Shown piece by piece: positions 510 to 17,732 of a stretch of 20,000 nt of DNA (position 1 is its first letter; each line of letters starts with the position of its first letter). The position numbers were made by a program, and so were the translations under genes. The DNA comes from an uncultured virus (IMG/VR IMGVR_UViG_3300025869_000012) (taxonomy: Duplodnaviria > Heunggongvirae > Uroviricota > Caudoviricetes): IMG/VR virus record IMGVR_UViG_3300025869_000012; one strand, written 5' to 3'. Under the pieces are notes generated by a model. The model made no database searches. It saw only the letters and a list, made by a program, of their open reading frames with translations, and had not been told where the DNA came from.

Positions 510-781
510 TATGTAGATCTGTTTTCAGCAAAGCCGCCAAAAGCTTGTGGCTTATCTTCTTTCAATTTACCATCTAACATATTCTGCTCGTCTTGTATTT
601 TGTTTAATATTTCAAACGCATCAAATATAGCTAGCTTTTTAGTTGCTGCTGCATTTTTTAATCTATCAGCTGATACATCTTCTTCTGTATCTATAATTTC
701 TTCTTTGGCTACTTTAATTAATTCATCAACCGCCTTATAACCAGCTTGGATTATATTCTTCTTCTTGTCCTTGATATTCAT
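509..781 (-). CDS. Small helical protein, candidate terminase small subunit
   Basis: 90-aa charged helical ORF translationally coupled to the terminase large subunit. Function inferred from position only. Confidence 0.55.
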   Translation of the reverse strand: MNIKDKKKNIIQAGYKAVDELIKVAKEEIIDTEEDVSADRLKNAAATKKLAIFDAFEILNKIQDEQNMLDGKLKEDKPQAFGGFAENRST

Positions 782-1331
782 ATTTAATTGTAATTGAATT
801 AGTTAACACTCTATATAACCTCTCGCGCTCTATAACAAACTCAAACTTACTATTGGGACTAAACCCCACTAAAGTATTTTTTGTTATTCCTAGCGCGTCT
901 AAGGAATTATTAGAATATTTTAAAACACCAATCAAAGGTTGTTCTTTTTCCTCACTAAACTTCTCATATGATTTTATTGGTTTTACAAAACAATACTCAT
1001 CAGGCGCAGTCCATATACCTTTACTTTTATATAAAAATATTTGGTCTTTAGCAACACAGTATGTATGCTCGTCTATAAAGCTTCTACTGTTTTTCTCTAA
1101 GCCCTCTGCGTTATACCAACGTCTAAATACATTATGGTGAAGAATTACTTCATCACCAATTTGTATATTAGTATCACCAACTTTAGGTAACGCTTTTACA
1201 ACTCCTGTACGGTTTATCATTAAATGATCTTCTATTGAAGCGTTCAGCACGAGTTTAGTATCACCTACTTGTTTCGTGTTGTTGTAGCGTTTACCTTTTG
1301 GTGTTATGATAAAGTCAAATAACCCTTTCAA
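735..1331 (-). CDS. Tandem (two-domain) GroES/Cpn10-like co-chaperonin
   Basis: Two GroES-like units: FDFIITPK...RTGVVKALP...NIQIGDEVILHHN...YCVAKDQIF and DEYCFVKPI...LIGVLKY...LGITKNTLVGFSPNSKFEFVIERERLYRVLTNSITIKY. Confidence 0.65.
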   Translation of the reverse strand: MKGLFDFIITPKGKRYNNTKQVGDTKLVLNASIEDHLMINRTGVVKALPKVGDTNIQIGDEVILHHNVFRRWYNAEGLEKNSRSFIDEHTYCVAKDQIFLYKSKGIWTAPDEYCFVKPIKSYEKFSEEKEQPLIGVLKYSNNSLDALGITKNTLVGFSPNSKFEFVIERERLYRVLTNSITIKYEYQGQEEEYNPSWL

Positions 1332-1789: not shown

Positions 1790-2695
1790 TTATTTTTTAT
1801 TTTTTGGTTTTCTGCTATCAATAAACCAATTTTTATATTTATCTCTTTTAGCAGTTATGTATTCAAAGTACTTATCAACTTTTTCTTTCCAGTTTTTATC
1901 TATCCTAGGACATATAACTCCTGATTTAGGACTTGAAAAAACTTTGTTGATATAATTTCTTGCATCATGCTTGTTATCAAACAAATGATTACTAACACAA
2001 TAAAAAGATCCATAAAATATATTGTTCCATACATCAAATGGTTCTATGTCTTTACCTAATACACTTGCATATACAGCACTTTCACTTAAATGCGTTGTGT
2101 AAACTTTCTTAGACTTTTGTATATAGTAATACATGTCCATCTCTCTTGGCAATACGTTTTCCTGCCCAAACAAATCTTTCATTTCACCAATTATCTGATG
2201 GGTTGTTATCGGGTGTGGCTTAAATAAAACGTTACCTTTATGTGTTCTTTGTATATGCCTCATTTTATTCAAACAACATCTGTCTTTTAATTTGTTTGAA
2301 CCTGGAAGTATAACTAAGTAATCTTTAGCTGGCCACTTTCGGTAGTCATCTAATCTATCTTTGTACTTGTTGGCTGTGTTATCTGTTATATTACTTACAA
2401 AATAAGAAGCATAATCTAAAACTTCATGATCTTTATCATTAAACGCGTCTGGTAATTGCGCATCTCTTATTTTAAAATTCATTGGCTGTAAATAAAAACA
2501 CGTTGCCAACTCTGTGTATGCCATTGTTTTAAAGTAAGGCATTTCCTCTGCCATTACATCATAAGCATACTCTATTCCGTTTTCGCTACACTTTCGTATA
2601 ACGTAGCCTTCTACTTGCTCTAAGTAATCGAGCTTATCATTTTTTTGAAGGTGCCCTATTCTTTCTTTAAGGACCTTCCTATTAAACATTTCCAT
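1790..2695 (-). CDS. Putative glycosyltransferase, capsule polysaccharide synthesis (KpsS/KpsC-like, GT-B C-terminal domain)
   Basis: VLFKPHP motif followed by MDMYYYIQKSKKVYTTHLSESAVYASVLGKDIEPF. This resembles the K-x-HP and 'V-x-T-x-x-S-x-x-x-x-EA-x-x-x-GK' segments of Capsule_synth and CMP-sugar transferases. Confidence 0.6.
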   Translation of the reverse strand: MEMFNRKVLKERIGHLQKNDKLDYLEQVEGYVIRKCSENGIEYAYDVMAEEMPYFKTMAYTELATCFYLQPMNFKIRDAQLPDAFNDKDHEVLDYASYFVSNITDNTANKYKDRLDDYRKWPAKDYLVILPGSNKLKDRCCLNKMRHIQRTHKGNVLFKPHPITTHQIIGEMKDLFGQENVLPREMDMYYYIQKSKKVYTTHLSESAVYASVLGKDIEPFDVWNNIFYGSFYCVSNHLFDNKHDARNYINKVFSSPKSGVICPRIDKNWKEKVDKYFEYITAKRDKYKNWFIDSRKPKNKK

Positions 2696-2754: not shown

Positions 2755-5700
2755 CTAGGTGCCAACGCTGTTGTAGTCTACCCTGTCAGTATTGTAATCT
2801 GCTCTTGTAGTATTGTAAAAAGATATACCAGTAGTAAATGTTGTTGTTGTGTTAAATACCGTGTTAGTACTTATAACAGTATTGGTTGCTCTTGTAGTAT
2901 TGTAAGTTGTAGTAGTAGCTCTATTAGTTGATACCACAGTTGTTGTGTTAGTTGAAGTGTTGTAAGTTGTAGTTGTATTTCTGTTTGTAAGGGTTGACGT
3001 GTTAAATACAGTAACAGTTGCTGTTGTGGTGTTGAACGTGGTAGTTGTAGCTGTGGTAGTATTAAATACTGTGGCTGTGATTCTGATTGTTCCTGTAGCC
3101 GTGCTGGTAGATTTGCTTGTTTCGTATGTAGTTGTAGTGGCTCTGTTAGTTGACACAACAGTACTTGTAGCTTTCTCCGTAACAGTACTTGTATTAAATA
3201 CAGTTGTTGTGTTTCTATTTGTACTTATAGTAGTTATAAATATTGTAGTTCTTGATGTGTTAAAGGTTGTGGTTGTGTCAATATTTGTTTCGTACGTCGT
3301 GCTATATACAGTTATAGTGTTAGTACTTGTGTTAAAAGTAGTTGTGGTAGCTGTGCTAGTGTTAAACGTTGTTACTGTAGCTGTTGTAGTATTAAATACC
3401 GTTATTGTATTTGTTGATGTATTAAATACGGTATTAGTTGTTCTATTAGTTGACACTACTGTATTTGTAGCTTTACTAGTATTTGTTGATGTGTTAAATA
3501 CAGTGGTTGTACTAGTATTTGTATTATAAGCAGTTGTTGTACCTCTTGTAGTATTAAAAGTTGTTGTAGTATCTACATTAGTTGAGTATGTTGTTGTATA
3601 TGCCGTAATAGTGTTGGTTGATGTATTAAAAGTTGTGGTAGTATCGATGTTTGTAGATACTGTCGTGCTTGTTGCTCTATTTGTACTAACTACAGTACTA
3701 GTTGCTTTTTGTGTTACAGTTGATGTATTAAATACAGTAACAGTAGCTGTACTAGTATTGAAAGTAGTAGTTGTTGCTCTATTTGTTGATACAGTTGTTG
3801 TAGTATTAAAAGTTGTTGTAGTACTAGTATTAAAAGTTGTAGTAGTAGCTGTACTAGTATTAAAAGTCGTTGTTGTAATAAATGTGGTTGTAGTTGAAGT
3901 GTTAAATACAGTAACGGTAGCCGTGCTTGTATTAAACGTAGTTGTAGTATCAACGTTTGTAGACACCGTGGTACTAGTAGTAACAGTTGTAGCAGTGCTT
4001 GTGTTAAATACAGTATTTGTAGTTTTTGTAGTTTCGTATGTAGTAGTAGTTGCTCTATTTGTACTGTATGTAGTTGTAGTACCAAATGTAGTCGTTGTGC
4101 TAGTATTAAAGGTGGTGGTTGTAGCTTGGTTAGTACTATATGTAGTTGTTGTATTAAACACAGTTGTTGTACTGGTATTGAATACTGTTACTGTGCTGGT
4201 AGAAGTATTAAAAGCAGTAGTAGTGGCTCTGTTTGTAGATATAGTTGTAGTTCTTGATGTTTGCGTTGTAGTCGAAGTATTAAAAACAGTGTTAGTTGTT
4301 TTTGTTGTTTCAAACGTGGTGGTCGTAGCTCTATTTGTACTAATAGTAGTAGTTCTACTAGTTGCTGTAGATGTTGACGTATTAAATGTAGTTGTTGTAG
4401 CTCTATTAGTAGATATAGTCGTAGTCCTTGAAGTCTGTGTTGTTGTGCTTGTATTAAATACAGTATTAGTTGCTGTTGACGTATTATATGTAGTAGTAGT
4501 TGCCCTATTTGTACTTATCGTAGTGGTTCTGCTAGTAGAGGTTGCAGTCGAGGTATTAAAAGTAGTTGTGGTGGCTCTGTTAGTAGAGTATGTTGTTGTT
4601 GTAGCTCTATTGGTAGATATAGTAGTTGAGCGAGATGTAGATGTAGTAAACACAGTTGTCGTTGCTCTATTAGTAGAATATGTTGTGCTAGTTCCAAATG
4701 TAGTTGTCGTTGCTCTATTGGTAGATATAGTCGTGCTAGTTCCAAAGGTAGTTGTTGTAGACCTATTTGTTGAAACGGTTGTGCTGGTTGCAAATGTTGT
4801 GGTTGTGTTATAAGTTGTAGTTGTATTAAAAGTAGTGGTTGTGGCACGGTTAGTACTAAACGTTGTGGTTGTACTTGTATTAAATGTTGTTGTTGTTGCT
4901 CTATTAGTAGAATATGTTGTAGTAGTTCCAAATGTAGTTGTTGTAGATCTACTTGTTGATACAGTTGTACTAGTTGCAAACGTTGTAGTTGTATTAAAAG
5001 TCGTAGTTGTGTTAAACGTGGTAGTTGTGGCACGGTTGGTACTAATTGTTGTTGTTGTACTAGTGTTAAATGTAGTTGTAGTACTTCTACTTGTAGCGGT
5101 GCTTCTACTTGTAGCAGTACTTTTAGTTGTGTTAAACGTTGTGGTTGTACTAGTGTTAAACACGGTATTAGTGGCTCTACTTGTAGACATAATGGTGGTT
5201 CTACTTGTGGCAGTACTTCTACTTGTAGATTTATTAGTTACCGTACTTGTGTTAAATATTGTTGTGGTATTAAACGTAGTAGTTGTGTTTCTGTTAGTAG
5301 ATGTATTTCTACTTGTAGCTGTTGTTTTATTTGTTATTGTACTAGTATTAAATGTAGTGGTAGTTGCCCTATTAGTACTTATAGTTGTAGTTCTACTAGT
5401 TTGAGTTGTTGTAGACGTGTTAAACGTAGTAGTAGTTGAACTACTTGTAGCGGTGCTTCTAGTTGTTAGTTTGTTTGTTATTGTGCTGGTGTTAAATATT
5501 GTTGTGGTGTTAAAAGTTGTTAGAGTTGTGTAGGTTGTAGTTGTATTAGTACTAGTATTAAACGTTGTAGTTGTGCCAGTACTGTATCCACCACCATCTG
5601 TTCTTGCAGCGTGACAGTCTAATGATGCACCATTATCAAAAATACCAGACGCTGACGGAAGCGTATCACTACCAATAGGAAGTAACACAGGCTGATTAAC

Positions 5701-6297
5701 ATCAAACTCAAACCAACTAGTATTATCAGTACCACCTTCTATTTCATATGAAACATTTTCACTATCAGCACTATGCCTTAATCTAATTCTACCACCATTA
5801 TCCATTAAAGCCTTAAGTACATTGTACTGGCTATCCCCATCCGCATCTGTAGCAGACATTGCCAGTTTAGTAACACTTAGAACAGCAGCATTATTACCTC
5901 TTATTTGACCGGCACCAGGATTTGCCATTGAAACATTTGTACTCCAGTTAAATACAGCACCTTCGTTGGTCCCGTCACCTCTAAACAGTATTTGATTTTT
6001 TGTTGTAGCAAGAACCGTATTAGTACTTGTATTAAACGTTGTTGTAGTATTAAACGTTGTTGTAGTATTTCTGCTAGTAGACGTTGATCTACTTTCCGTC
6101 GTGGTTCTATTTGTAGACACTGTGGCACTAGTAGCTGTTGATCTAGTTGTAGCTGTTGCTCTAGTTGTGGTAAACGTAGTGGTAGTACTTTTACTTGTAG
6201 CTGTTGACCTAGTTGTGTTAAAAGTTGTGGTTGTATTTGTTGCTGTAAGTCTATCTGTAACTAAAGATGTTTGAAAAGTTGTAGTAGTATTAGGCAT
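2755..6297 (-). CDS. Giant Thr-rich repeat protein B (~1180 aa) with one globular insert; probable virion fibre or surface protein
   Basis: Long open frame of FNTSTTTT / STNRATTTT / STATSRS modules. Likely start is the ATG at 6297 (MPNTTTTF), overlapping the methyltransferase stop. Non-repetitive domain at ~5580-6000. Confidence 0.85.
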   Translation of the reverse strand: MPNTTTTFQTSLVTDRLTATNTTTTFNTTRSTATSKSTTTTFTTTRATATTRSTATSATVSTNRTTTESRSTSTSRNTTTTFNTTTTFNTSTNTVLATTKNQILFRGDGTNEGAVFNWSTNVSMANPGAGQIRGNNAAVLSVTKLAMSATDADGDSQYNVLKALMDNGGRIRLRHSADSENVSYEIEGGTDNTSWFEFDVNQPVLLPIGSDTLPSASGIFDNGASLDCHAARTDGGGYSTGTTTTFNTSTNTTTTYTTLTTFNTTTIFNTSTITNKLTTRSTATSSSTTTTFNTSTTTQTSRTTTISTNRATTTTFNTSTITNKTTATSRNTSTNRNTTTTFNTTTIFNTSTVTNKSTSRSTATSRTTIMSTSRATNTVFNTSTTTTFNTTKSTATSRSTATSRSTTTTFNTSTTTTISTNRATTTTFNTTTTFNTTTTFATSTTVSTSRSTTTTFGTTTTYSTNRATTTTFNTSTTTTFSTNRATTTTFNTTTTYNTTTTFATSTTVSTNRSTTTTFGTSTTISTNRATTTTFGTSTTYSTNRATTTVFTTSTSRSTTISTNRATTTTYSTNRATTTTFNTSTATSTSRTTTISTNRATTTTYNTSTATNTVFNTSTTTQTSRTTTISTNRATTTTFNTSTSTATSRTTTISTNRATTTTFETTKTTNTVFNTSTTTQTSRTTTISTNRATTTAFNTSTSTVTVFNTSTTTVFNTTTTYSTNQATTTTFNTSTTTTFGTTTTYSTNRATTTTYETTKTTNTVFNTSTATTVTTSTTVSTNVDTTTTFNTSTATVTVFNTSTTTTFITTTTFNTSTATTTTFNTSTTTTFNTTTTVSTNRATTTTFNTSTATVTVFNTSTVTQKATSTVVSTNRATSTTVSTNIDTTTTFNTSTNTITAYTTTYSTNVDTTTTFNTTRGTTTAYNTNTSTTTVFNTSTNTSKATNTVVSTNRTTNTVFNTSTNTITVFNTTTATVTTFNTSTATTTTFNTSTNTITVYSTTYETNIDTTTTFNTSRTTIFITTISTNRNTTTVFNTSTVTEKATSTVVSTNRATTTTYETSKSTSTATGTIRITATVFNTTTATTTTFNTTTATVTVFNTSTLTNRNTTTTYNTSTNTTTVVSTNRATTTTYNTTRATNTVISTNTVFNTTTTFTTGISFYNTTRADYNTDRVDYNSVGT

Positions 6298-7354
6298 TAT
6301 CTGCACCTCCTTCCCCAATAAGTATACCGTTAACAAAGTAATTATAGTTAACGCCTAGCTTACATATTTCGTATATAGTATTATCTGAGTCATCAAAATC
6401 TATTTGTGTTATTTCTATTTCATCACCAGCAACGCCATATAACTTATCACCAACAAGTAGTTGATTTACATTAAAATCTCGCCACGTATTATTTCTTTTT
6501 GCTATTATAGGCTGGTTGCCAGTTGCTTTTAAATTAGAGTTGATAGTGTAAATACCTTTTGCTTTCATTACAAAAACATTTTTATCACCTCTTTGTTTTG
6601 TTGATGTTTTACCTGATACATCTGATGTCAATAGTGTGTCGTGTTTAACCGCTTGCCACATAGGAACAGCATCATCACTGTTAACATGAATAGTAGCGTC
6701 TTGCCTTACCACGCCATAGCCTGTTGCTGGCTTTTGATTTGTATACACAGGTAAGTGATATACAGTTCTGTTGAAATATTGATTTGCAGGTGGATTAATA
6801 TTAACATCGTAAAAATCAATATGATCATCTGGCCAATAAAACTTCATCCACGGGTCTGTTGTACCACCGCTCCAGTTCCACCACGATATTCTACTGCCTT
6901 GCTTTGCTTTTTGCTTTACAAAATACGCAAACTTTGGGTGTAAGTCTGCATCAGCGTATGTGTCCATTAATATAACGTCGTACCTACCCGCTTCTTGCAT
7001 TAAACTAAACCACCTGTCGTTTACGGCTCTTACTGTTGGATTACTAGAGGCAAACTCAGCTAGCTTAGGTTGTATTTGTGGATGCGTTTCTGCTATTGTA
7101 TGTGATGCAGGTTTTCTAGCCTGCACAGCTGTAGCTAATATACCCATGCCAAAACCACACTCTAGAACATGGTCACCTTCATTAACGCACACCTCTGCCA
7201 TCTTTTCCATAATAGGCTGTTCCCAACCCATCATAACCTCCCATGTTTCTTGCGCTGCCGGGTTAAACCAAACAATATCACCATTGTCCCTAACTGTAAG
7301 GTCTGCCTCGTGATAATTGACTTGTGTATCCGACGGTTTTTCGTATCCTGACAT
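6290..7354 (-). CDS. Rmt2/GAMT-like class I SAM-dependent methyltransferase fused to a C-terminal degenerate Hint domain
   Basis: VMMGWEQPIM, VLECGFGMGI (SAM motif I), IAETHP, ILMDTY and SWWN parallel guanidinoacetate/Rmt2 methyltransferase motifs. The C-terminal ~140 aa has the Hint pattern IYTINSNLKATGNQP...LLVGDKL...EIEITQI...TIYEI...NYFVNGILI. Confidence 0.8.
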   Translation of the reverse strand: MSGYEKPSDTQVNYHEADLTVRDNGDIVWFNPAAQETWEVMMGWEQPIMEKMAEVCVNEGDHVLECGFGMGILATAVQARKPASHTIAETHPQIQPKLAEFASSNPTVRAVNDRWFSLMQEAGRYDVILMDTYADADLHPKFAYFVKQKAKQGSRISWWNWSGGTTDPWMKFYWPDDHIDFYDVNINPPANQYFNRTVYHLPVYTNQKPATGYGVVRQDATIHVNSDDAVPMWQAVKHDTLLTSDVSGKTSTKQRGDKNVFVMKAKGIYTINSNLKATGNQPIIAKRNNTWRDFNVNQLLVGDKLYGVAGDEIEITQIDFDDSDNTIYEICKLGVNYNYFVNGILIGEGGADNA

Positions 7355-7380: not shown

Positions 7381-10300
7381 TTAGTTACAACCTCTACTAC
7401 AGCCACCACCGCCACCACTTGCTGTGAATGTTGATCTTGATGTGTTGAACGCTGTTACGAATACTGTAGTTGTATTTGTTGCTGTAGATCTTGTTGTATT
7501 AAACGTAGTTGTGGTATTATACGTGGTTGTTGTACTTCTTGATGTATTGTAAGCTGTAGTTGTGCTAAATGTAGTGGTTGTATTAAACACGGTTGTGGTG
7601 TTAAATGTGGTCGTTGTATTGTATGTGGTTGTAGTGTTAAATGTTGTTTCAGTAGTTCTATTTGTTGATGTATCTCTATTAGTAGAAACAATTGTCACAA
7701 ACGCGGTGTAATGAGACTTGGATCTACCAACGGTTGTCGTAGCGGTAGTAGTACTAGTGTTATATGTTGTACTAGTACTTCTAGATTCTGTTGTATTTCT
7801 ACTAGTTGCTGTAGCTCTATTAGTAGATCTTATATGTGATGAATATGTAGTTGTAAACTGAGTTGTTGTATCAAACGTGGTAGTCGTATTTCTATTTGTA
7901 CTATATGTGGTAGTGGTACCAAACGTTGTAGTGGTACTAGTATTGAAAGTAGTTGTAGTAGCTCTATTGGTTGCCCGTATGTGTGATGCGTATGTAGTTG
8001 TGGTATTAAATGTAGTAGTGGTAGTAAATACAGTATTTGTAGTTCTACTAGTTGCCGTAGATCTATTAGTAGATCTTATAAGCGATGAATATTGCGTTAC
8101 AAAAGTTGTAGTTGTACTAAACGTAGTGGTAGTACTAGTATTAAATGTTGTTGTGGTATCTCTATTTGTTGATATAGTAGTACTCTTGCTCGTGTTATAT
8201 GTGGTTGTTGTGTTAAAAGTGGTTGTTGTGTTAAAAGTAGTTGTCGTAGCTCTATTTGTACTGATTGTTGTACTAGTACTAGTATTAAATGTAGTAGTTG
8301 TTGATCTACTTGTTGCTGTAGATTTACTTGTAGCTGTACTTCTAGTAGTCTGTGTGTTTGTGCTAGTATTGAATGTGGTTGTAGTTGATTTACTAGTTTG
8401 TGTCGTTGTGCTAGTATTAAACGTAGTTGTCGTGGCTCTATTTGTACTGATTGTTGTACTAGTACTGGTGTTAAACGTGGTGGTCGTTGATCTACTTGTT
8501 GCTGTACTTTTGCTTGTAGCTGTACTTCTAGTGGTCTGTGTATTTGTACTGGTGTTAAAAGTAGTTGTGGTTGACCTACTAGTTTGCGTAGTTGTACTAG
8601 TGTTAAACGTAGTGGTAGTTGATTTACTTGTTTGCGTTGTGGTGCTAGTGTTAAATGTAGTTGTAGTAGCTCTATTAGTACTAGTACTAAACGTAGTTGT
8701 TGTAGACGTGTTAAACGTAGTTGTGGTACTTGTAGAAGTATTAAACGTAGTAGTTGTAGCTCTATTAGTTGAATACGTAGTAGTAGTATTAAACGTTGTC
8801 GTAGTAGATGTATTAAAAGTAGTAGTAGTATTTGTACTTGTATTATACGTTGTAGTCGTATTTCTATTTGTACTATATGTGGTAGTGGTACCAAAAGTTG
8901 TAGTGGTACTAGTGTTGAAAGTAGTTGTGGTAGCTCTATTTGTTGAGTACGTAGTTGTGGTATTGAATGTTGTAGTGGTAGACGTATTAAATGTTGTTGT
9001 AGTACTCTTACTCGTATTAAAAGTGGTAGTTGTATCTACATTAGTAGAATATGTAGTGGTAGTACCAAACGTGGTAGTAGTACTTGTATTAAATACAGTT
9101 GTAGTAGATTTACTTGTTTCATATGTAGTAGTTGTAGCCCTGTTAGTAGATATGGTAGTTGTCCTGTTTGTAGATGTAGACGTACTAGTATTAAATGTAG
9201 TGGTAGTTGCCCTATTAGTACTTATAGTTGTAGTTCTACTAGTTTGAGTTGTTGTTGAAGTATTAAATGTGGTGGTTGTATTAGTACTTGTGTTATAAGT
9301 TGTTGTAGTGTTTCTATTTGTAGATATAGTTGTACTTCCAGCGGTGGTTGTATTAGTACTTGTATTAAACACAGTATTAGTAGACCTACTAGTTGATACC
9401 ACCGTATTAGTAGCTCTGTTAGTTGATATAGTTGTAGTTCTACTTGTAGATGTTGACCTATCAGTTTCGTAAGTAGTGGTGGTTGCTCTATTAGTACTTA
9501 TTGTAGTTACTCTACTTGTAGCTGTGGCAGTAGAAGTATTAAATGTAGTTGTGGTTGCTCGGTTAGTAGATACTACAGTATTAGTAGCTATATTAGTTTC
9601 GTATGTAGTTGTATATGCTGTAATCGTATTAGTGCTAGTGTTAAACACTGTAACAGTATCCGTACTAGTATTAAATACAGTATTAGTTGCTCTATTAGTA
9701 CTAACAACTGTACTTGTTGACTTTTGTGTAACCGTACTTGTATTAAACACTGTGTTTGTGGTGGTTGATGTGTTAAACGTTGTGGTAGTGCTTGTTGATG
9801 TGTTGTACGTAGTGGTAGTTGCTCTGTTGGTAGCTATTGTAGTCGTAAATACAGTTGTAGTACTAGTTGATGTGTTGAATGTTGTTGTAGTATCTATATT
9901 GGTACTATACTCAGTAGATGTTGATCTATTGGTTACAACAACAGTATTGGTAGCTCTATTAGTAGAGTATGTTGTGGTAGTATTTCTATTAGTTGATACC
10001 ACCGTGCTTGTTGTCTTCTGTGTTACAGTAGACGTATTGAAAACAGTATTAGTAGTTCTAGTTGTTTCAAATATCGTTGTTCTACTAGTTTCATATGCTG
10101 TTTCAAAAACAGTATTAGTGGTTATGTTAGTAGAGAAAGTCGTAGTAAAGTTTGTTGTAGTATTAGTAGATGTATTAAATGTAGTAGTGGTAGATGTGCT
10201 AGTGTTGAAAGTTGTGGTAAACGTAGTGGTAGTATTGAAAACTGTACTAGTATCTATATTAGTCGAGTATGCAGTATTAGTAGTTCTGTTAGTACTAACT

Positions 10301-10530
10301 ACTGTATTGGTTGATCTGTTTGTAGAAAGTGTTGTATTGAAAGCTGTCGTCGTGGATGTTGACGTATTAAAGGTTGTTGTAGTTGATGTAGACGTGTTGA
10401 ATGTGGTAGTTGTACTTGTAGATGTGTTGAATGTGGTTGTTGTAGAATACGCTGTCTGCGTCGTACGGTTTGTAGACGTGCTCCTCGAAGTTGAGGTACT
10501 TCTCTTAAATATTCTAAATAAATCCCACAT
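7381..10530 (-). CDS. Giant Thr-rich repeat protein A (1049 aa); probable virion fibre or surface protein
   Basis: Open frame built from the same modules as protein B, with a short N-terminal MWDLFRIFKR and a C-terminal SGGGGGCSRGCN. Lies directly downstream of a tail-fibre-like gene. Confidence 0.85.
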   Translation of the reverse strand: MWDLFRIFKRSTSTSRSTSTNRTTQTAYSTTTTFNTSTSTTTTFNTSTSTTTTFNTSTSTTTAFNTTLSTNRSTNTVVSTNRTTNTAYSTNIDTSTVFNTTTTFTTTFNTSTSTTTTFNTSTNTTTNFTTTFSTNITTNTVFETAYETSRTTIFETTRTTNTVFNTSTVTQKTTSTVVSTNRNTTTTYSTNRATNTVVVTNRSTSTEYSTNIDTTTTFNTSTSTTTVFTTTIATNRATTTTYNTSTSTTTTFNTSTTTNTVFNTSTVTQKSTSTVVSTNRATNTVFNTSTDTVTVFNTSTNTITAYTTTYETNIATNTVVSTNRATTTTFNTSTATATSRVTTISTNRATTTTYETDRSTSTSRTTTISTNRATNTVVSTSRSTNTVFNTSTNTTTAGSTTISTNRNTTTTYNTSTNTTTTFNTSTTTQTSRTTTISTNRATTTTFNTSTSTSTNRTTTISTNRATTTTYETSKSTTTVFNTSTTTTFGTTTTYSTNVDTTTTFNTSKSTTTTFNTSTTTTFNTTTTYSTNRATTTTFNTSTTTTFGTTTTYSTNRNTTTTYNTSTNTTTTFNTSTTTTFNTTTTYSTNRATTTTFNTSTSTTTTFNTSTTTTFSTSTNRATTTTFNTSTTTQTSKSTTTTFNTSTTTQTSRSTTTTFNTSTNTQTTRSTATSKSTATSRSTTTTFNTSTSTTISTNRATTTTFNTSTTTQTSKSTTTTFNTSTNTQTTRSTATSKSTATSRSTTTTFNTSTSTTISTNRATTTTFNTTTTFNTTTTYNTSKSTTISTNRDTTTTFNTSTTTTFSTTTTFVTQYSSLIRSTNRSTATSRTTNTVFTTTTTFNTTTTYASHIRATNRATTTTFNTSTTTTFGTTTTYSTNRNTTTTFDTTTQFTTTYSSHIRSTNRATATSRNTTESRSTSTTYNTSTTTATTTVGRSKSHYTAFVTIVSTNRDTSTNRTTETTFNTTTTYNTTTTFNTTTVFNTTTTFSTTTAYNTSRSTTTTYNTTTTFNTTRSTATNTTTVFVTAFNTSRSTFTASGGGGGCSRGCN
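8245..8616 (-). repeat. Internal ~186-nt (62-codon) tandem duplication in protein A
   Basis: cgtagctctatttgtactgattgttgtactagtact at 8245 recurs as cgtggctctatttgtactgattgttgtactagtact at 8431. The protein units (QTTRSTATSKSTATSRSTTTTFNTSTSTTISTNRAT) are near-identical with many synonymous differences. Confidence 0.8.
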
Positions 10531-10538
10531 ATACTACA

Positions 10539-11180
10539 TTATGAAAAATCACCAACAAAATTGACTAATGCTTGAGTTGATGATATCACAACGTATGATA
10601 TTACTGACGTGTCGTTTGCTCCTGTAGCAAAATTTACACTAGCACCCGCTGGTGTTAGCATGTTACTTGGTAAAGCTGCCATAGCAAAATCTGCCCCTAT
10701 ACTTGAAGGGTTTTTAAGTATTATAACACCAGATTGTCCAACGTTTTCACTGGCTATTGTCATAACTAATGAGTTTGAATTATCTACTAAGTTAACTACA
10801 AAGTTATCGTTTGCTGTTAAATTTATCGTTGATACACCACTACTAGGCGTTACTGTTGTTATTGTTCTTCTTAAATTTTGAGTTACTTTTATACTACCTG
10901 TTACATCAAAATCACTACTTACTGTTCCTGAACCTGTCAGAGCTAATGTGCTACCATCAAATGTTAAATTAGCCTCGCCGTTTAAACTGTCGGCATCAGA
11001 TGTTGTTATTATCCTATTATCAGCGCCATTAGCAATATCTACATTACTATAATTTGCTTTTGTAAAATTACCAAGTTGTGCTAGCGTAAAGTTTTTAGTT
11101 GAACCTGATACATCTGTACCTATCAACTTATCACCGTCTGTTAAACTTGTGTCTGCTGCTATTCTACTAATTCTAGGCAT
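10539..11180 (-). CDS. Tail-fibre-like structural protein
   Basis: Likely start at ATG 11180 (MPRISRIAAD...). Contains DGDKLIGTD and DNRIITTSDADSLNGEANLTFDGSTL, segments I associate with marine phage tail fibres, and a beta-rich C-terminus. Confidence 0.7.
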   Translation of the reverse strand: MPRISRIAADTSLTDGDKLIGTDVSGSTKNFTLAQLGNFTKANYSNVDIANGADNRIITTSDADSLNGEANLTFDGSTLALTGSGTVSSDFDVTGSIKVTQNLRRTITTVTPSSGVSTINLTANDNFVVNLVDNSNSLVMTIASENVGQSGVIILKNPSSIGADFAMAALPSNMLTPAGASVNFATGANDTSVISYVVISSTQALVNFVGDFS

Positions 11181-11184
11181 ACTA

Positions 11185-11583
11185 CTATTTTTTATTAAAC
11201 TTCTCGAAACTTCGACCGCCAAAATAGGCACCGATTACAGTTATCAATACTAACTGTAGCAAGTCCGTCCATTTTTGTTCTACGTTAAAATTAACTGATC
11301 CACTATCCACAAATACCATAAGGACAGTTGATACAATAAGGAAAACTAGCACAAGGGGTCTTACCGATCTTGTTAGCCAGTTGCCGTGTTCTAAATCTGC
11401 TTTCCATCTTTCTGTTACGTTTTTCTGCATTGCAGCTTCAGCGTCAATCAAGACTTTAGTCATCTCTTTTTCAAACGCTTGCTTCTCTGCACCTGTTGTT
11501 ATAAACCTATCAGCAACGCCAGCTATTTTATCTATAAAGCTACCAGCTGCGCCACCGAATAATTTTCCTAATATCTTACTCAT
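11185..11583 (-). CDS. 3TM holin (GTA_holin_3TM-like)
   Basis: N-terminal amphipathic segment, then RWKAD...WLTRSVRPL followed by two hydrophobic helices and a C-terminal GAYFGGRSFEK, typical of this family. Confidence 0.8.
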   Translation of the reverse strand: MSKILGKLFGGAAGSFIDKIAGVADRFITTGAEKQAFEKEMTKVLIDAEAAMQKNVTERWKADLEHGNWLTRSVRPLVLVFLIVSTVLMVFVDSGSVNFNVEQKWTDLLQLVLITVIGAYFGGRSFEKFNKK

Positions 11584-13213: not shown

Positions 13214-13471
13214 CTAGTCTATTAACACTACATCACCAACTTTGATGATATAGTATAATATATCTTTATGTTGTATGCTGTGTCCAGCGTGTTTATCATA
13301 ATGCACCACATCGCCCTCGCTTACGCCTTCAACGAGGTTACCTATACTAATAACCTCAGCCTTTACATACCTATTGTCACTGTCTACACTATCCATAATG
13401 TCTAGACCAGCAATTTTTTTAGGTTTTTCTTTTATGTTTTTAACTACTATATAATAACTAACGGCTTTCAT
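13214..13471 (-). CDS. groES: Co-chaperonin GroES (Cpn10)
   Basis: YIVVK...KKIAGLDI...AEVISIGNLVEGVSEGDVVHYDKHAG...YYIIKVGDVV matches the Cpn10 pattern. Overlaps the groEL 3' end. Confidence 0.9.
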   Translation of the reverse strand: MKAVSYYIVVKNIKEKPKKIAGLDIMDSVDSDNRYVKAEVISIGNLVEGVSEGDVVHYDKHAGHSIQHKDILYYIIKVGDVVLID

Positions 13472-15032
13472 TTGGATTCAGTCTAATATTACTTACAATA
13501 CAATCAGCCGACGTTATAGTAGTCGCAACACTCACCGCATTTTTTAATGCAGTCTTTGTAACTAAGACGGGGTCTACGATTCCAGCTTTGATCATTTCAA
13601 CACTATTACCCGAGATAACATCAAAACCAACGCCAGTGTTGGTAGGCGTTTCGTAGTTTTCAATACCAGCATTATTCATTATAGTGATAAAAGGTGATTT
13701 AATCGACTTCGCTAGTATTTTCTCCCCAATATTGTTACTTTTTTCAAGCTCTTGCGCAGCGTTAAGTAGCGCTATACCACCACCTGCAACAATACCTTCA
13801 CGTAAAGCTGCTTTAGTAGCGTAAATAGCATCCTCAACCCTGTCCTTCTTTTCTTTCAATTCAACCTTTGATACAGCACCAACGCGTATCATACCAACCG
13901 AACCGCTTAACATGCTCAGTCTTTGTTGTAAATGCTTCTTTAGAAACGGATCTTTCTCTTTTTCAATGAGCTTTTCCACTTCTTTTATTCTTTCCTGTAT
14001 TACCTTAGTGTCTTTATTAACAGTTAACACAGTTTTTTCACCGTCTGTTACGCTTTTTAGCGCAGAACCAAGCACATCTGGCTGTATTAGGTCTAAATCA
14101 TCGCCTAATTCTTCATTTATTACCTTTGCACCGGTTAAAATTGACAAATCTTCAAGCGTTCCTTGCCTTGTAGACATAAAACCAGGTAAATCTATGATGT
14201 TTACGTCTATATTGCCCTTAATCTTGTTCATTAAAAGCGCAGATTTTGCTTTTTCGTCAATTTGTGCCATAATTAGCAGTGATTGCCTGCTTTGAATCAC
14301 ATGCTCTAGCACGTTTTGTATCTTTCTAAGGCTAGGTATGTTACAATTTACAATTAAAATAGCAGGGTTATCAAGTTCTGCTACACCTTTGTCCTTATTT
14401 GTAGTAAAATGTGGTGATGTTAGGCCAGCTTCAAACTGTACGCCATCAACTATTTCAGCAAAAGTCTTTTCAGATTCAGACTCTTCCATCATTACTACAC
14501 CATTTTTACCTACTTCTTTGTAAGCTTGTGATATAATTTTTCCAATTTGCCTATCGTTGTTGCAACTAATACTGCTAACGTGCTCCAAAAGATCACCTTC
14601 AACCTCAACACTTTCTCTTTCAAGATATTTATTAACTTTATCCAAGCCTGTATAAATACCGTCTTTAATTTCACGTATAGTTTTGTTAGATAATTCTTCA
14701 TTTATGTTTTTTAGTAAAGCTTCGGTTAAAACTATTGATGTGGTTGTACCATCACCTGCTTCCGCTACTGTTTTGGCCGATGCTTGTTTTACGAGTCTTG
14801 CTCCTATATTCTCCACGGGATCAAGCAGGACAACTGATTCTGCTACAGTTACACCGTCCTTTGTGATCACTGGAGAGCCTAAAGCGTCTTCGTATATTAC
14901 ACACATACCTGAGGCACCCAGGGTGGACTTCACTGCTGCAGCTAGTTTATCCACACCTGCTAATACCTTTTCTCTGGCTTTATCGCCAAAATTAAGATCT
15001 TTAACGATCTCACTAGGGTTATTATATTCCAT
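13458..15032 (-). CDS. groEL: Chaperonin GroEL (Cpn60), phage-encoded
   Basis: AVKSTLG, ITKDGVTVA, AGDGTTTS, ELKEKKDRVEDAIYATKAALREGIVAGGG and GIVDPVLVTKTALKNAVSVA. No GGM tail. Confidence 0.97.
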   Translation of the reverse strand: MEYNNPSEIVKDLNFGDKAREKVLAGVDKLAAAVKSTLGASGMCVIYEDALGSPVITKDGVTVAESVVLLDPVENIGARLVKQASAKTVAEAGDGTTTSIVLTEALLKNINEELSNKTIREIKDGIYTGLDKVNKYLERESVEVEGDLLEHVSSISCNNDRQIGKIISQAYKEVGKNGVVMMEESESEKTFAEIVDGVQFEAGLTSPHFTTNKDKGVAELDNPAILIVNCNIPSLRKIQNVLEHVIQSRQSLLIMAQIDEKAKSALLMNKIKGNIDVNIIDLPGFMSTRQGTLEDLSILTGAKVINEELGDDLDLIQPDVLGSALKSVTDGEKTVLTVNKDTKVIQERIKEVEKLIEKEKDPFLKKHLQQRLSMLSGSVGMIRVGAVSKVELKEKKDRVEDAIYATKAALREGIVAGGGIALLNAAQELEKSNNIGEKILAKSIKSPFITIMNNAGIENYETPTNTGVGFDVISGNSVEMIKAGIVDPVLVTKTALKNAVSVATTITSADCIVSNIRLNPNESR

Positions 15033-16523: not shown

Positions 16524-16550
16524 AATTACAGGTTTCTATTAGTATTTAAG

Positions 16551-16695
16551 TAGTGTGACAATAGGCCCTTATTATTAGACTATATAGGGCTAATGTCACT
16601 ATAAAAAAATTGTGAGATAATTAGAAGTAGAGTGTTGTACTATGACATTATGTCATACATATAAAAATAAAAATGACAATATGACAATGGGCCCC
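16551..16695. repeat. TGACA-containing inverted and direct repeat cluster at the strand switch
   Basis: Imperfect inverted repeat gtgacaataggccct...agggctaatgtcac (16555-16599), palindrome tatgacat-t-atgtcata (16641-16657) and direct repeat atgacaat x2 (16673-16688). Confidence 0.75.
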
Positions 16696-16730
16696 ACCAA
16701 TATTCTAGAAATACAACATTATTATTTTCA

Positions 16731-16761
16731 ACAATCTATATACGATGCCATATAGATAATA
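16731..16761 (+). promoter_or_regulatory. Repeated promoter-like motif, copy 1
   Basis: ACAATCTATATACGA-TGCCATA-TAGATAATA, upstream of the ORF at 16792. Confidence 0.7.
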
Positions 16762-16791
16762 CTACTATACAAACAAAAACAAATATATCTT

Positions 16792-16923
16792 ATGACTAAA
16801 TTAAAATTCACTTCACTTGACTACAATAAATTCATACAAACTATTGATTCACTAGATTCCAATAATAATGATTACACAATTGAAACTGATTATTTAGATT
16901 CTTATTATATAATAATAAAATAA
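16792..16923 (+). CDS. Small hypothetical protein (43 aa)
   Basis: Manual translation MTKLKFTSLDYNKFIQTIDSLDSNNNDYTIETDYLDSYYIIIK*, following motif copy 1 and an A-rich leader. Confidence 0.55.
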   Translation: MTKLKFTSLDYNKFIQTIDSLDSNNNDYTIETDYLDSYYIIIK

Positions 16924-16992
16924 ATAGAAAAAGAGAGATAGTGCGGTATACTTTACTAACTAAAAATATACAATAAACAATTACACTACTTT

Positions 16993-17023
16993 ACAATGTA
17001 AATACTATAACTATAAGATAACA
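16993..17023 (+). promoter_or_regulatory. Repeated promoter-like motif, copy 2 (degenerate)
   Basis: ACAATGTAAATACTA-TAACTAT-AAGATAACA, upstream of the ORF at 17059. Confidence 0.6.
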
Positions 17024-17058
17024 TTACTATACAACTTAAACATAAAACAAATACAACT

Positions 17059-17286
17059 ATGAATACAATCACTTCTAAAAGATTTGTAGTAAGAAAAAGT
17101 CTTCTTAATACAAACACAAACATAACTTTCACTAATAAAAAAGGAAAAGAAATTACTTACTCACACGATAAAGTATTTAATATAATGAAAGATACTCTCA
17201 CTAACTTACCATGTTGGTTAAAGTATAAGAGTTACACTGCTACTAATAATATTCCATTAGTACTTAGAGATAAAGAGTTAGTTTAA
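17059..17286 (+). CDS. Hypothetical early protein
   Basis: 75-aa ORF after an A-rich leader (aaaacaaatacaactATG). Confidence 0.75.
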   Translation: MNTITSKRFVVRKSLLNTNTNITFTNKKGKEITYSHDKVFNIMKDTLTNLPCWLKYKSYTATNNIPLVLRDKELV

Positions 17287-17301
17287 TAGCTCTTTACCTC
17301 A

Positions 17302-17348
17302 TCTAGTCTTGGAGCAGAGGTGGGTTTCGACTACTCACACTAGAACTA
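17302..17348 (+). ncRNA. Minimal tRNA-like element (acceptor-like stem plus T-arm, no anticodon arm)
   Basis: tctagt (17302-17307) pairs with actaga (17339-17344). gtgggt-TTCGACT-actcac forms a T-arm with a canonical 7-nt T-loop. Confidence 0.5.
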
Positions 17349-17362
17349 AATTACAACTTACT

Positions 17363-17461
17363 ATGAAGAATAATAAACTAATTACAGAGACACTAATGTC
17401 TATAACTTTCTTAACACTTTTAACATTACTACTATGGATAACACTAATAATAATAGGATAA
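17363..17461 (+). CDS. Small single-TM membrane peptide (32 aa)
   Basis: Manual translation MKNNKLITETLMSITFLTLLTLLLWITLIIIG*. Confidence 0.5.
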   Translation: MKNNKLITETLMSITFLTLLTLLLWITLIIIG

Positions 17462-17544
17462 CTATACTAACCTCAGAAGAAATACAAATGGTTTTAGATA
17501 ACTGGTATGACAGGTTAGATTCAAGTGATGAGTTTACAATGTAA
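17434..17544 (+). CDS. Small acidic hypothetical peptide (36 aa)
   Basis: Manual translation MDNTNNNRITILTSEEIQMVLDNWYDRLDSSDEFTM*, overlapping the previous ORF. Confidence 0.4.
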   Translation: MDNTNNNRITILTSEEIQMVLDNWYDRLDSSDEFTM

Positions 17545-17566
17545 ACACGATCATTAATAGATAATA
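17536..17566 (+). promoter_or_regulatory. Repeated promoter-like motif, copy 3
   Basis: ACAATGTAAACACGA-TCATTAA-TAGATAATA, upstream of the ATG at 17580. Confidence 0.7.
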
Positions 17567-17579
17567 TATATAAACAACT

Positions 17580-17732
17580 ATGAATACAATTAAATTTCTA
17601 CCAAACAATAAAATACTACTTAATAATAAAACATTATTAAACAAAATAAATAACACTAACCAGTATGCCTCTTGGTATACTATTAAAAACAAAAACTATG
17701 GCGATACAATACAACGCTTACCAATCAATTAA
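17580..17732 (+). CDS. Small hypothetical protein (50 aa)
   Basis: Manual translation MNTIKFLPNNKILLNNKTLLNKINNTNQYASWYTIKNKNYGDTIQRLPIN*. The start context acaactATGAATACAAT is the same as for the ORF at 17059. Confidence 0.5.
   Translation: MNTIKFLPNNKILLNNKTLLNKINNTNQYASWYTIKNKNYGDTIQRLPIN

Follow-up and report, generated by a model that had tools for sequence, protein, structure and literature searches.

Hint domains are single-turnover machines that cut or splice the protein they belong to. What is such a domain doing at the end of an enzyme, if the residues for cutting and splicing are gone? This question is raised by a gene in a stretch of 20,000 nucleotides from an uncultured marine phage (IMG/VR record IMGVR_UViG_3300025869_000012; by the window we mean this whole stretch). 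The gene, which we call P0001, is an open reading frame (ORF) of 354 amino acids at positions 6290-7354 on the minus strand, taken from the ORF list and its translation, and carries a methyltransferase and a Hint fold. It lies between the genes of two threonine-rich proteins, B upstream and A downstream. Its C-terminal domain is a pseudo-Hint: the predicted fold is intact, and every residue used in autoprocessing is gone, the nucleophile and the penultimate His in all relatives examined.

Evidence for a Hint fold

A first-pass annotation had proposed that positions 6290-6718 encode a catalytically degenerate Hint domain fused to a methyltransferase. The span is exact (codon 213 begins at 6718 and the ORF ends at 6290, giving residues 213-354), and the strings quoted for it are all there, that is, YGVVRQDATI from residue 213, TGNQP at residues 278-282 and NGILIGE at residues 342-348. 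Foldseek, VIA-align and phmmer links all bear out a Hint fold attached to a methyltransferase; we place the fold itself at residues 214-346 (6317-6715, minus strand).

The AlphaFold2 (AF2) model of P0001, made with 37 sequences, has a predicted local distance difference test score (pLDDT) of 87, and of 84-94 across the Hint domain. Foldseek, which had been suggested as a check that would refute the idea if no Hint fold came up, recovered Hint structures, with matches ranging from an E-value of 1.8e-7 (BIL2, 6tmm; BIL stands for bacterial intein-like domain) to 5.8e-7; 2lwy was superposed with TMt 0.78 and a root-mean-square deviation (rmsd) of 2.6. Using residues 211-350, VIA-align gave the Tetrahymena BIL2 6y75_B (Z 17.5, rmsd 2.1, 134 aligned residues), the C. 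thermocellum BIL 2lwy (Z 17.2), the Ssp DnaB mini-intein (Z 15.7) and Hedgehog 6tyy (Z 15.6). The horseshoe-like all-beta fold that defines the superfamily is thus found with VIA Z-scores of 15-17.5 over residues 211-351.

Homology to Hint domains can also be detected in the sequence by transitive links. A phmmer search with the C-terminal 151 amino acids against 1.84 billion representatives returned 91 proteins at E <= 1e-3, and 33 of the 39 such matches that were scanned have a Hint-type Pfam domain (PT-HINT, Intein_splicing, Hint, Hint_2, Vint or Hom_end_hint), likewise at E <= 1e-3. A feature search of the ESM Atlas brings up Hint-type clusters too, which we take only as a lead. Altogether, the predicted fold of P0001 matches the Hint fold well beyond chance.

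Loss of the autoprocessing residues

We aligned 97 unique Hint domains of the family with 12 active relatives. The 97 domains were drawn from 76 database proteins and 35 ORFs of related loci (111 before the removal of duplicates). In the column of the nucleophile Cys1 there is a Gly in 95 domains and an Ala in two, and never a Cys, Ser or Thr. The first-pass annotation had seen that the nucleophile is missing, which is correct, and had let the domain start with YGVVRQDATI, which would put Tyr213 in its place and is not. The equivalent of Cys1 is Gly214 (6713-6715, minus strand), one residue further on, since the alignment and the ends of the VIA ranges agree on it; in these ranges, residue 214 of the model corresponds to residue 1 of the RecA mini-inteins and to residue 258 of 6tyy.

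The block B remnant TGNQP (residues 278-282; 6509-6523, minus strand) has retained its Thr, and its His is replaced by Gln. The loss of this His, also pointed out before, is true of the window, which has T-G-N-Q for Thr-x-x-His, and fails as a rule for the family: the block B Thr is present in 72/97 domains, the His in 47/97 and Gln in 34/97 (the domain of the window among them), so that about half of the relatives still have the motif.

The predicted loss of His-Asn in block G, on the other hand, is confirmed. The remnant NGILIGE (residues 342-348; 6311-6331, minus strand) has no His-Asn, and across the family the penultimate His occurs in 0/97 domains (Lys in 61, Arg in 23, Gly in 10, Gln in two, a gap in one). 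The terminal Asn is found in eight, in none of them preceded by His, and Gly takes the +1 position in 71. Since only about eight residues remain after the fold, with the short Gly-rich end GEGGADNA and the stop codon read from the sequence at 6290-6316 (minus strand), there is nothing to splice. Hence neither the block A nucleophile of autoprocessing Hint domains (class 1 inteins, BIL, Hog) nor the block G His-Asn with a C-extein (inteins, A-type BIL) is there. No Cys column is conserved across all members, and the domain of the window has a single, non-conserved Cys.

Note that inteins which splice without Cys1 do exist, and that class 3 inteins use a WCT triplet, composed of Trp at B:12, Cys at F:4 and Thr at G:5 (PMC2807308). 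These three residues are found in 0/97, 1/97 and 2/97 of the domains, respectively, and we rejected the class 3 route. The class 2 route was rejected as well, because it needs a +1 Cys and a His-Asn end, both of which are absent. The comparison with homologues, which had been proposed to see whether any of them keep the active residues, therefore gave Cys1 in 0/97, His-Asn in 0/97 and the block B His in 47/97. Catalytic degeneracy holds for the whole family, with no nucleophile, no penultimate His and no WCT triplet.

These losses set the domain apart from the known domains that it resembles most. BIL domains (2lwy; the BUBL BIL2 structures 6y75 and 6tmm) are the best structural matches (Z 17.2-17.5, rmsd 2.1, 130-134 aligned residues), and, as in many BILs, the domain ends a variable, non-conserved protein and is not found inside a housekeeping enzyme. 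BILs splice or cleave by means of Cys1 and, in the A-type, His-Asn (PMC7765530), whereas P0001 has Gly at position 1 and none of the 97 domains has His-Asn. The Hog/Hint domain of Hedgehog (6tyy) has the same fold, also lies C-terminal to a functional N-terminal domain and also has a conserved Gly beside the junction. Hedgehog cuts at Gly-Cys via Cys1, attaching cholesterol (PMC7765530), while the junction of P0001 reads Tyr-Gly-Val and has no nucleophile.

Selection on the domain

We calculated omega, the ratio of nonsynonymous to synonymous substitution rates, for pairs of homologues. In the four closest pairs (synonymous divergence dS 0.59-0.81), the Hint domain has an omega of 0.11-0.22 and the methyltransferase one of 0.05-0.11. 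Pairs further apart are saturated, and their values are higher. The low omega of the close pairs points to purifying selection: the Hint domain, although dead, is still selected. Furthermore, at least 85 of the 97 domains agree at 24 positions. Among these positions are Gly214, Lys286-Arg287, Trp291 (97/97) and Gly302-Asp303 (97/97), as well as a motif specific to this family, F320-D321-x-S323.

The very end of the gene is a separate matter. The last codons (GEGGADNA) hold GGAGG, which resembles a ribosome-binding site, and the ATG of gene A (6295-6297), and the start of gene A overlaps the stop of P0001 as ATGCCTAA. The identical overlap of eight bases (-7) is seen in 29/34 related loci with a methyltransferase-Hint gene. 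Because GGAGG and the ATG lie within it, this short 3' end is constrained by the translation of gene A and not by protein function.

The methyltransferase domain

Residues ~12-207 (6734-7321, minus strand) form a class I S-adenosylmethionine (SAM) methyltransferase domain of the GAMT/Rmt2-like type, as judged by phmmer, Foldseek and VIA-align. In a phmmer search against the PDB this part is nearest to guanidinoacetate N-methyltransferase (GAMT; 1p1b, E 1.5e-8). Foldseek matches it to 1xcj (E 1.5e-9), and VIA-align superposes the two with Z 20.3 and rmsd 2.9 (198 aligned residues, 24% identity). Direct searches of Pfam and PHROGs with the whole protein gave just Methyltransf_25 at E 0.087 and phrog_6074 at 0.18; 85 of its 88 homologues bear the label PF27704.1, precomputed by the database.

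The domain has the Rossmann-like fold and a Gly-rich motif I (LECGFGMG), which is invariant in the alignment of 37 homologues of the enzyme (alignment A1). In GAMT, Glu45 works together with Asp134 in holding and deprotonating the guanidino group. In the phmmer alignment these two acidic residues correspond to E45 and D131 of the enzyme; across alignment A1, E45 never varies and D131 is retained in at least 90% of the sequences. Asp134 of GAMT is the proposed proton acceptor (PMC12471008). GAMT (1xcj, 1khh, 3orh) is thus similar to the N-terminal domain in fold, in motif I and in the conserved equivalents of Glu45 and Asp134; it differs in that its substrate is a small molecule and that it has no Hint domain. 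Another GAMT-like enzyme is Rmt2. The yeast Rmt2 is an arginine delta-N-methyltransferase that yields delta-N-methylarginine (PMC4860837). By homology, the enzyme is probably a phage guanidino-type (arginine-type) N-methyltransferase.

A conserved gene cassette and the tail of protein B

We examined the best 80 of 292 related viral loci together with the window. They contain 35 enzyme ORFs with a Hint domain and 51 without; an ORF that is only a Hint domain was not found in this set. A neighbouring ORF on the same strand with at least 30% Thr is present next to 34/35 methyltransferase-Hint genes, and on both sides in 31/35, the cases with an incomplete cassette being contig ends or broken frames. 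The cassette persists down to 41% identity of the enzyme. Hence a cassette of three genes, Thr-rich B, methyltransferase-Hint and Thr-rich A, is conserved.

In the window, protein B (7381-10530, minus strand) has 1049 amino acids and 48% Thr. Protein A occupies 2755-6297 (minus strand) if counted from its conserved start MPNTTTTF at 6297; in the ORF list it runs further, to a TTG at 6336. Both proteins have 43-48% Thr and consist of short T/S/N repeats with regular Phe or Tyr, and no Pfam family was found for either of them. AF2 run on the last 300 amino acids of B with an alignment of 24 rows gave a pLDDT of 32.5 and no readable fold, and for these two reasons "fibre" remains a label for the Thr-rich proteins. 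Within protein A, the repeats are broken at about residues 100-250 by a non-repetitive stretch of about 150 amino acids (VLATTKNQILFRGDG...DCHAARTDGGGY), which may be a globular domain. Note also that the opposite strand of the Thr-rich genes contains long, Val/Leu-rich shadow ORFs, for example at 3611-4813, 7877-9247 and 9476-10564.

Protein B ends in GGGGGCSRGCN (7384-7416, minus strand; from the sequence and an alignment of tails). In this alignment (A3; 26 unique tails, after an out-of-frame tail from locus L019 had been dropped) a run of Gly is followed by C-x-R-G-C in 22/26 tails and by C-F-R-N-C in 2/26, and 2/26 have the Gly run and RG but no Cys. All tails share the Arg (26/26), which in the window is encoded at 7393-7395 (minus strand) and is the probable methyl acceptor. 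A neighbour that ends in a Gly run and R[GN] is found in 31/35 loci with a methyltransferase-Hint gene and in 18/46 loci with a methyltransferase only, while none of the 1244 other ORFs of at least 100 amino acids has such an end (0/1244).

Some loci without a Hint domain deserve a closer description. In seven methyltransferase-only loci with Thr-rich genes, a divergent second methyltransferase-like ORF of 183-185 amino acids fills the place of the Hint domain. Examples are L033:10552-11109, L039:10558-11109 and L041:4433-4984; these ORFs follow the methyltransferase-only enzyme, lie between the two Thr-rich genes, and have retained motif I, with Asp changed to Glu in the DTY motif. In the loci L040-L055, which have a methyltransferase only and no Thr-rich genes (e.g. 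L043:8693-9280), a small downstream protein of about 185-210 amino acids ends in a Gly run and RG, for example ...GGGGGGGGGRGEGMP. Because of these small proteins, the pairing of the enzyme with the tail reaches beyond the Thr-rich proteins.

Relatives with an active-looking Hint domain

Among the phmmer matches outside the family, P0117 (48%) and P0118 (44%) are the most similar to the dead Hint domain. Both are Thr-rich repeat proteins whose C-terminal part is a Hint domain with Cys1, the block B His and T-H-N and, behind it, a Cys-rich tail. A search of viral contigs for further loci with a Thr-rich protein and an active Hint gave 147 pattern matches, none of which could be confirmed; a metagenome scan for the same combination gave three loci, L081-L083. 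Taken together, the active phage Hints (P0117, P0118, P0106 and P0114, and those of L081-L083) are the closest relatives by sequence, with at most 48% identity over about 85 residues, and share the motifs K-R-x-x-x-W and V-G-D with the Hint domain of the window. Unlike it, they still have Cys1, TxxH and T-H-N and belong to the Thr-rich protein itself, whereas the copy of the window is attached to a methyltransferase.

The gene order of L081 and L082 is an anchor gene, then B' (with a Cys1/TxxH/THN Hint and a Cys-rich tail), then A', and then an anchor of 303/304 amino acids. The latter is 60-61% identical, over 293-294 amino acids, to the 301-aa protein of the window (1790-2695, minus strand; E 2e-136 and 2e-140). 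The ORF preceding B' in L082 matches the 230-aa protein upstream of B (10539-11231, minus strand; 42% identity in its C-terminal half, E 6e-13). In addition, B' and the B proteins of several methyltransferase-Hint loci have the N-terminal motif MKNLGF..DFW in common. A methyltransferase ORF is not present in the syntenic loci L081 and L082. Since in these two loci an active-looking Hint, in cis, takes up the slot between the Thr repeats of B and protein A, the dead Hint occupies the slot of a live one. From synteny and identity we infer that the dead Hint may descend from a Hint domain of the B' type.

In a quick tree of 104 Hint domains, the 24 sampled methyltransferase-linked domains form one clade, with a support of 100 in the Shimodaira-Hasegawa-like approximate likelihood ratio test (SH-aLRT). 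P0117 and P0118 were left out of the tree, as their coverage of the profile is below 95 positions. Longer fused forms of the enzyme (621-2000 amino acids) were not found at E <= 0.001, which is weak evidence.

In L081:3565-6735, L082:3740-7288 and L083:3-1196, the active-looking Hint of the Thr-rich protein is followed by a tail of 35-45 amino acids with 4-6 Cys. Their Hint domains end without a +1 nucleophile (HN|AK, HN|RK), a BIL-like arrangement for which processing is predicted only. Six other relatives (P0099, P0100, P0103, P0104, P0112 and P0126) have two or three tandem Hint domains linked by ...HNKGGGG|CFL junctions; the ...HNKGGGG|C part resembles the Gly-run/Cys end of B, which is no more than a lead to what the dead Hint may recognise. 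P0081 switches in the middle of its Hint domain to a BRCT-like sequence (PF00533 and PF16589, precomputed); its contig is 1.5 kb long, and the sequence may be an assembly chimera.

Genomic context of the window

The window looks like a part of the genome of an uncultured phage, judging by its gene content: it encodes a TerL fragment, a holin, GroEL and two GroES-like proteins. The GroEL gene (13458-15032, minus strand; phrog_5725, 1.9e-133) adjoins an ORF of 85 amino acids for the first GroES-like protein (13214-13471, minus strand). The second GroES-like protein (198 amino acids, phrog_13932; 735-1331, minus strand) is encoded close to the terminase gene. At 16524-17660 there is a strand switch, with minus-strand genes to the left and plus-strand genes to the right; this region, whose G+C of 0.28 is the lowest in the window, probably holds divergent promoters.

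A tblastn search of 50,697 phage records gave a single partial match, to the methyltransferase part, with 34% identity, and searches with GroEL or the 301-aa protein found no cultured relative above 41% identity. The nearest record, G001, is a viral fragment of 27.8 kb, in which the sole match to the active-Hint profile is P0001's own gene.

Possible roles of the pseudo-Hint

What could a selected, inactive Hint domain be good for? We think there is about an even chance that P0001 is an arginine-type methyltransferase with a pseudo-Hint derived from B, which acts as an adaptor between the enzyme and the tail Arg of B. According to this proposal, a self-processing element of B would have become a dead Hint on the methyltransferase; as a non-catalytic adaptor, it would keep the enzyme on its substrate or on the assembling structure. 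The substrate would most likely be the invariant Arg in the Gly-run/C-x-R-G-C tail of B, and the methyltransferase domain would methylate the guanidino group of this Arg with SAM as the donor. A more specific version, in which an exapted pseudo-intein, captured by a protein arginine methyltransferase, recognises in trans the Gly-run/Cys end of B, which it would once have held in cis, and delivers the terminal Arg, is tentative and, taken with all its parts, unlikely. The first-pass annotation had suggested a domain repurposed for binding or targeting, for example for docking the enzyme on the fibre. Here a retained function is supported by the low omega, and a link to the Thr-rich proteins by gene order and by the syntenic loci whose upstream Thr-rich protein contains an active-type Hint, while docking is conjecture: the Hint domain may plausibly bind these proteins. 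A complex prediction of Hint residues 206-354 (A1) with the 40-aa tail of B (A3), run without controls, gave ipSAE values of 0.01 and 0.00, which count neither for nor against binding.

Several observations weigh against the adaptor proposal. Arginine methylation is assigned to the enzyme by homology, and a direct Pfam scan of P0001 finds no Hint domain. The sampling of loci is limited, as described above, and the conservation of gene order is seen inside one clade and so is not independent evidence; in the Hint tree, the sister of the dead-Hint clade is unresolved and the root arbitrary. The tails without Cys belong to two loci that do have a methyltransferase-Hint gene (L005 and L006). Seven methyltransferase-only loci (L033-36, L038, L039 and L041) have Thr-rich neighbours and the RG tail and lack the Hint; because they keep these neighbours, the Hint domain is not needed for the association of the enzyme with them.

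This last point also suits the idea that the Hint domain is a structural relic, partnerless and kept for the folding or solubility of the methyltransferase, in a gene whose 3' end carries the ribosome-binding site and start of gene A. The conserved overlap fits such a relic, and so does an omega of the Hint about twice that of the methyltransferase. However, the signals that couple P0001 to gene A are confined to the last ~25 bases, past the fold, which leaves an omega of 0.11-0.22 over 133 codons unexplained, and the 24 near-invariant positions, some of them specific to the family (F320-D321-x-S323), are not accounted for either. Moreover, methyltransferase-only homologues of about 190 amino acids exist as stand-alone ORFs, so that the fold of the enzyme does not need a Hint. 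We therefore consider a relic unlikely. It is distinctly unlikely, in our view, that the domain is an anchor for the virion or its assembly, by which the enzyme would attach to the particle or some other structural protein, or form oligomers. The gene does lie within a structural and lysis block, with the TerL fragment, the holin and GroEL/GroES near, and related active Hints form the C-terminal ends of phage proteins that are Thr-rich or bear fn3 domains; nothing in the analysis favours packaging of the enzyme, however, and with no further Hint-bearing ORF in the 80 viral loci or the window, no partner for a Hint-Hint contact is apparent.

It may also be that the neighbours are irrelevant, with the enzyme methylating a host protein or a small guanidino compound and the Hint serving as a regulatory lid or a localisation module. 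The nearest solved structures are indeed small-molecule GAMTs, and 28/46 methyltransferase-only loci have no RG-tailed neighbour. Yet the Gly-run/RG tail is exclusive to neighbours of the enzyme and its Arg invariant, and the cassette is kept even between distant enzymes (41% identity), which makes this explanation improbable. Finally, the domain could still process itself in a non-canonical way, like class 2 or class 3 inteins; the frequent block B Thr and His (72/97 and 47/97) and the existence of splicing inteins without Cys1 (PMC2807308) would speak for it. Given the counts of 0, 1 and 2 of 97 for the class 3 residues, the missing His-Asn, the Gly at +1 in 71/97, and the lack of a conserved Cys column and of a C-extein, we regard this as extremely improbable.

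Significance

Neither methyltransferase-Hint fusions nor these Thr-rich phage proteins were found described in the literature covered, which does not include subscription journals. New here are the residue counts across the family, the rejection of the class 2 and class 3 mechanisms, the omega test of selection and the relatives in which a live-looking Hint stands in a syntenic place. A similar concept, a catalytic fold that is selected after the loss of its catalytic residues, is known from the iRhom pseudoproteases; the likeness is one of concept only, since their fold and biology are unrelated and the binding role of the dead Hint is putative.

A Hint that is dead throughout its family, still selected and fused to an enzyme would show that the Hint fold can be reused for other roles, and the live and dead Hints in syntenic positions would be a natural before-and-after pair for the change of an autoprocessing domain into a pseudoenzyme. 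The cassette points to a phage-encoded protein arginine methyltransferase with a candidate target, the single invariant Arg in the terminal C-x-R-G-C loop. Recent proteomics shows methylated structural proteins in Cellulophaga phages, which are not known to encode methyltransferases (PMC13288928); in a mycobacteriophage, a tail protein is reported to be methylated by a host enzyme (PMC13445384). A phage-encoded enzyme for the methylation of phage structural proteins would widen this picture. If the adaptor proposal is true, the Hint fold would serve as a substrate-recognition domain, and a phage arginine methyltransferase would act on a structural protein of the phage itself.

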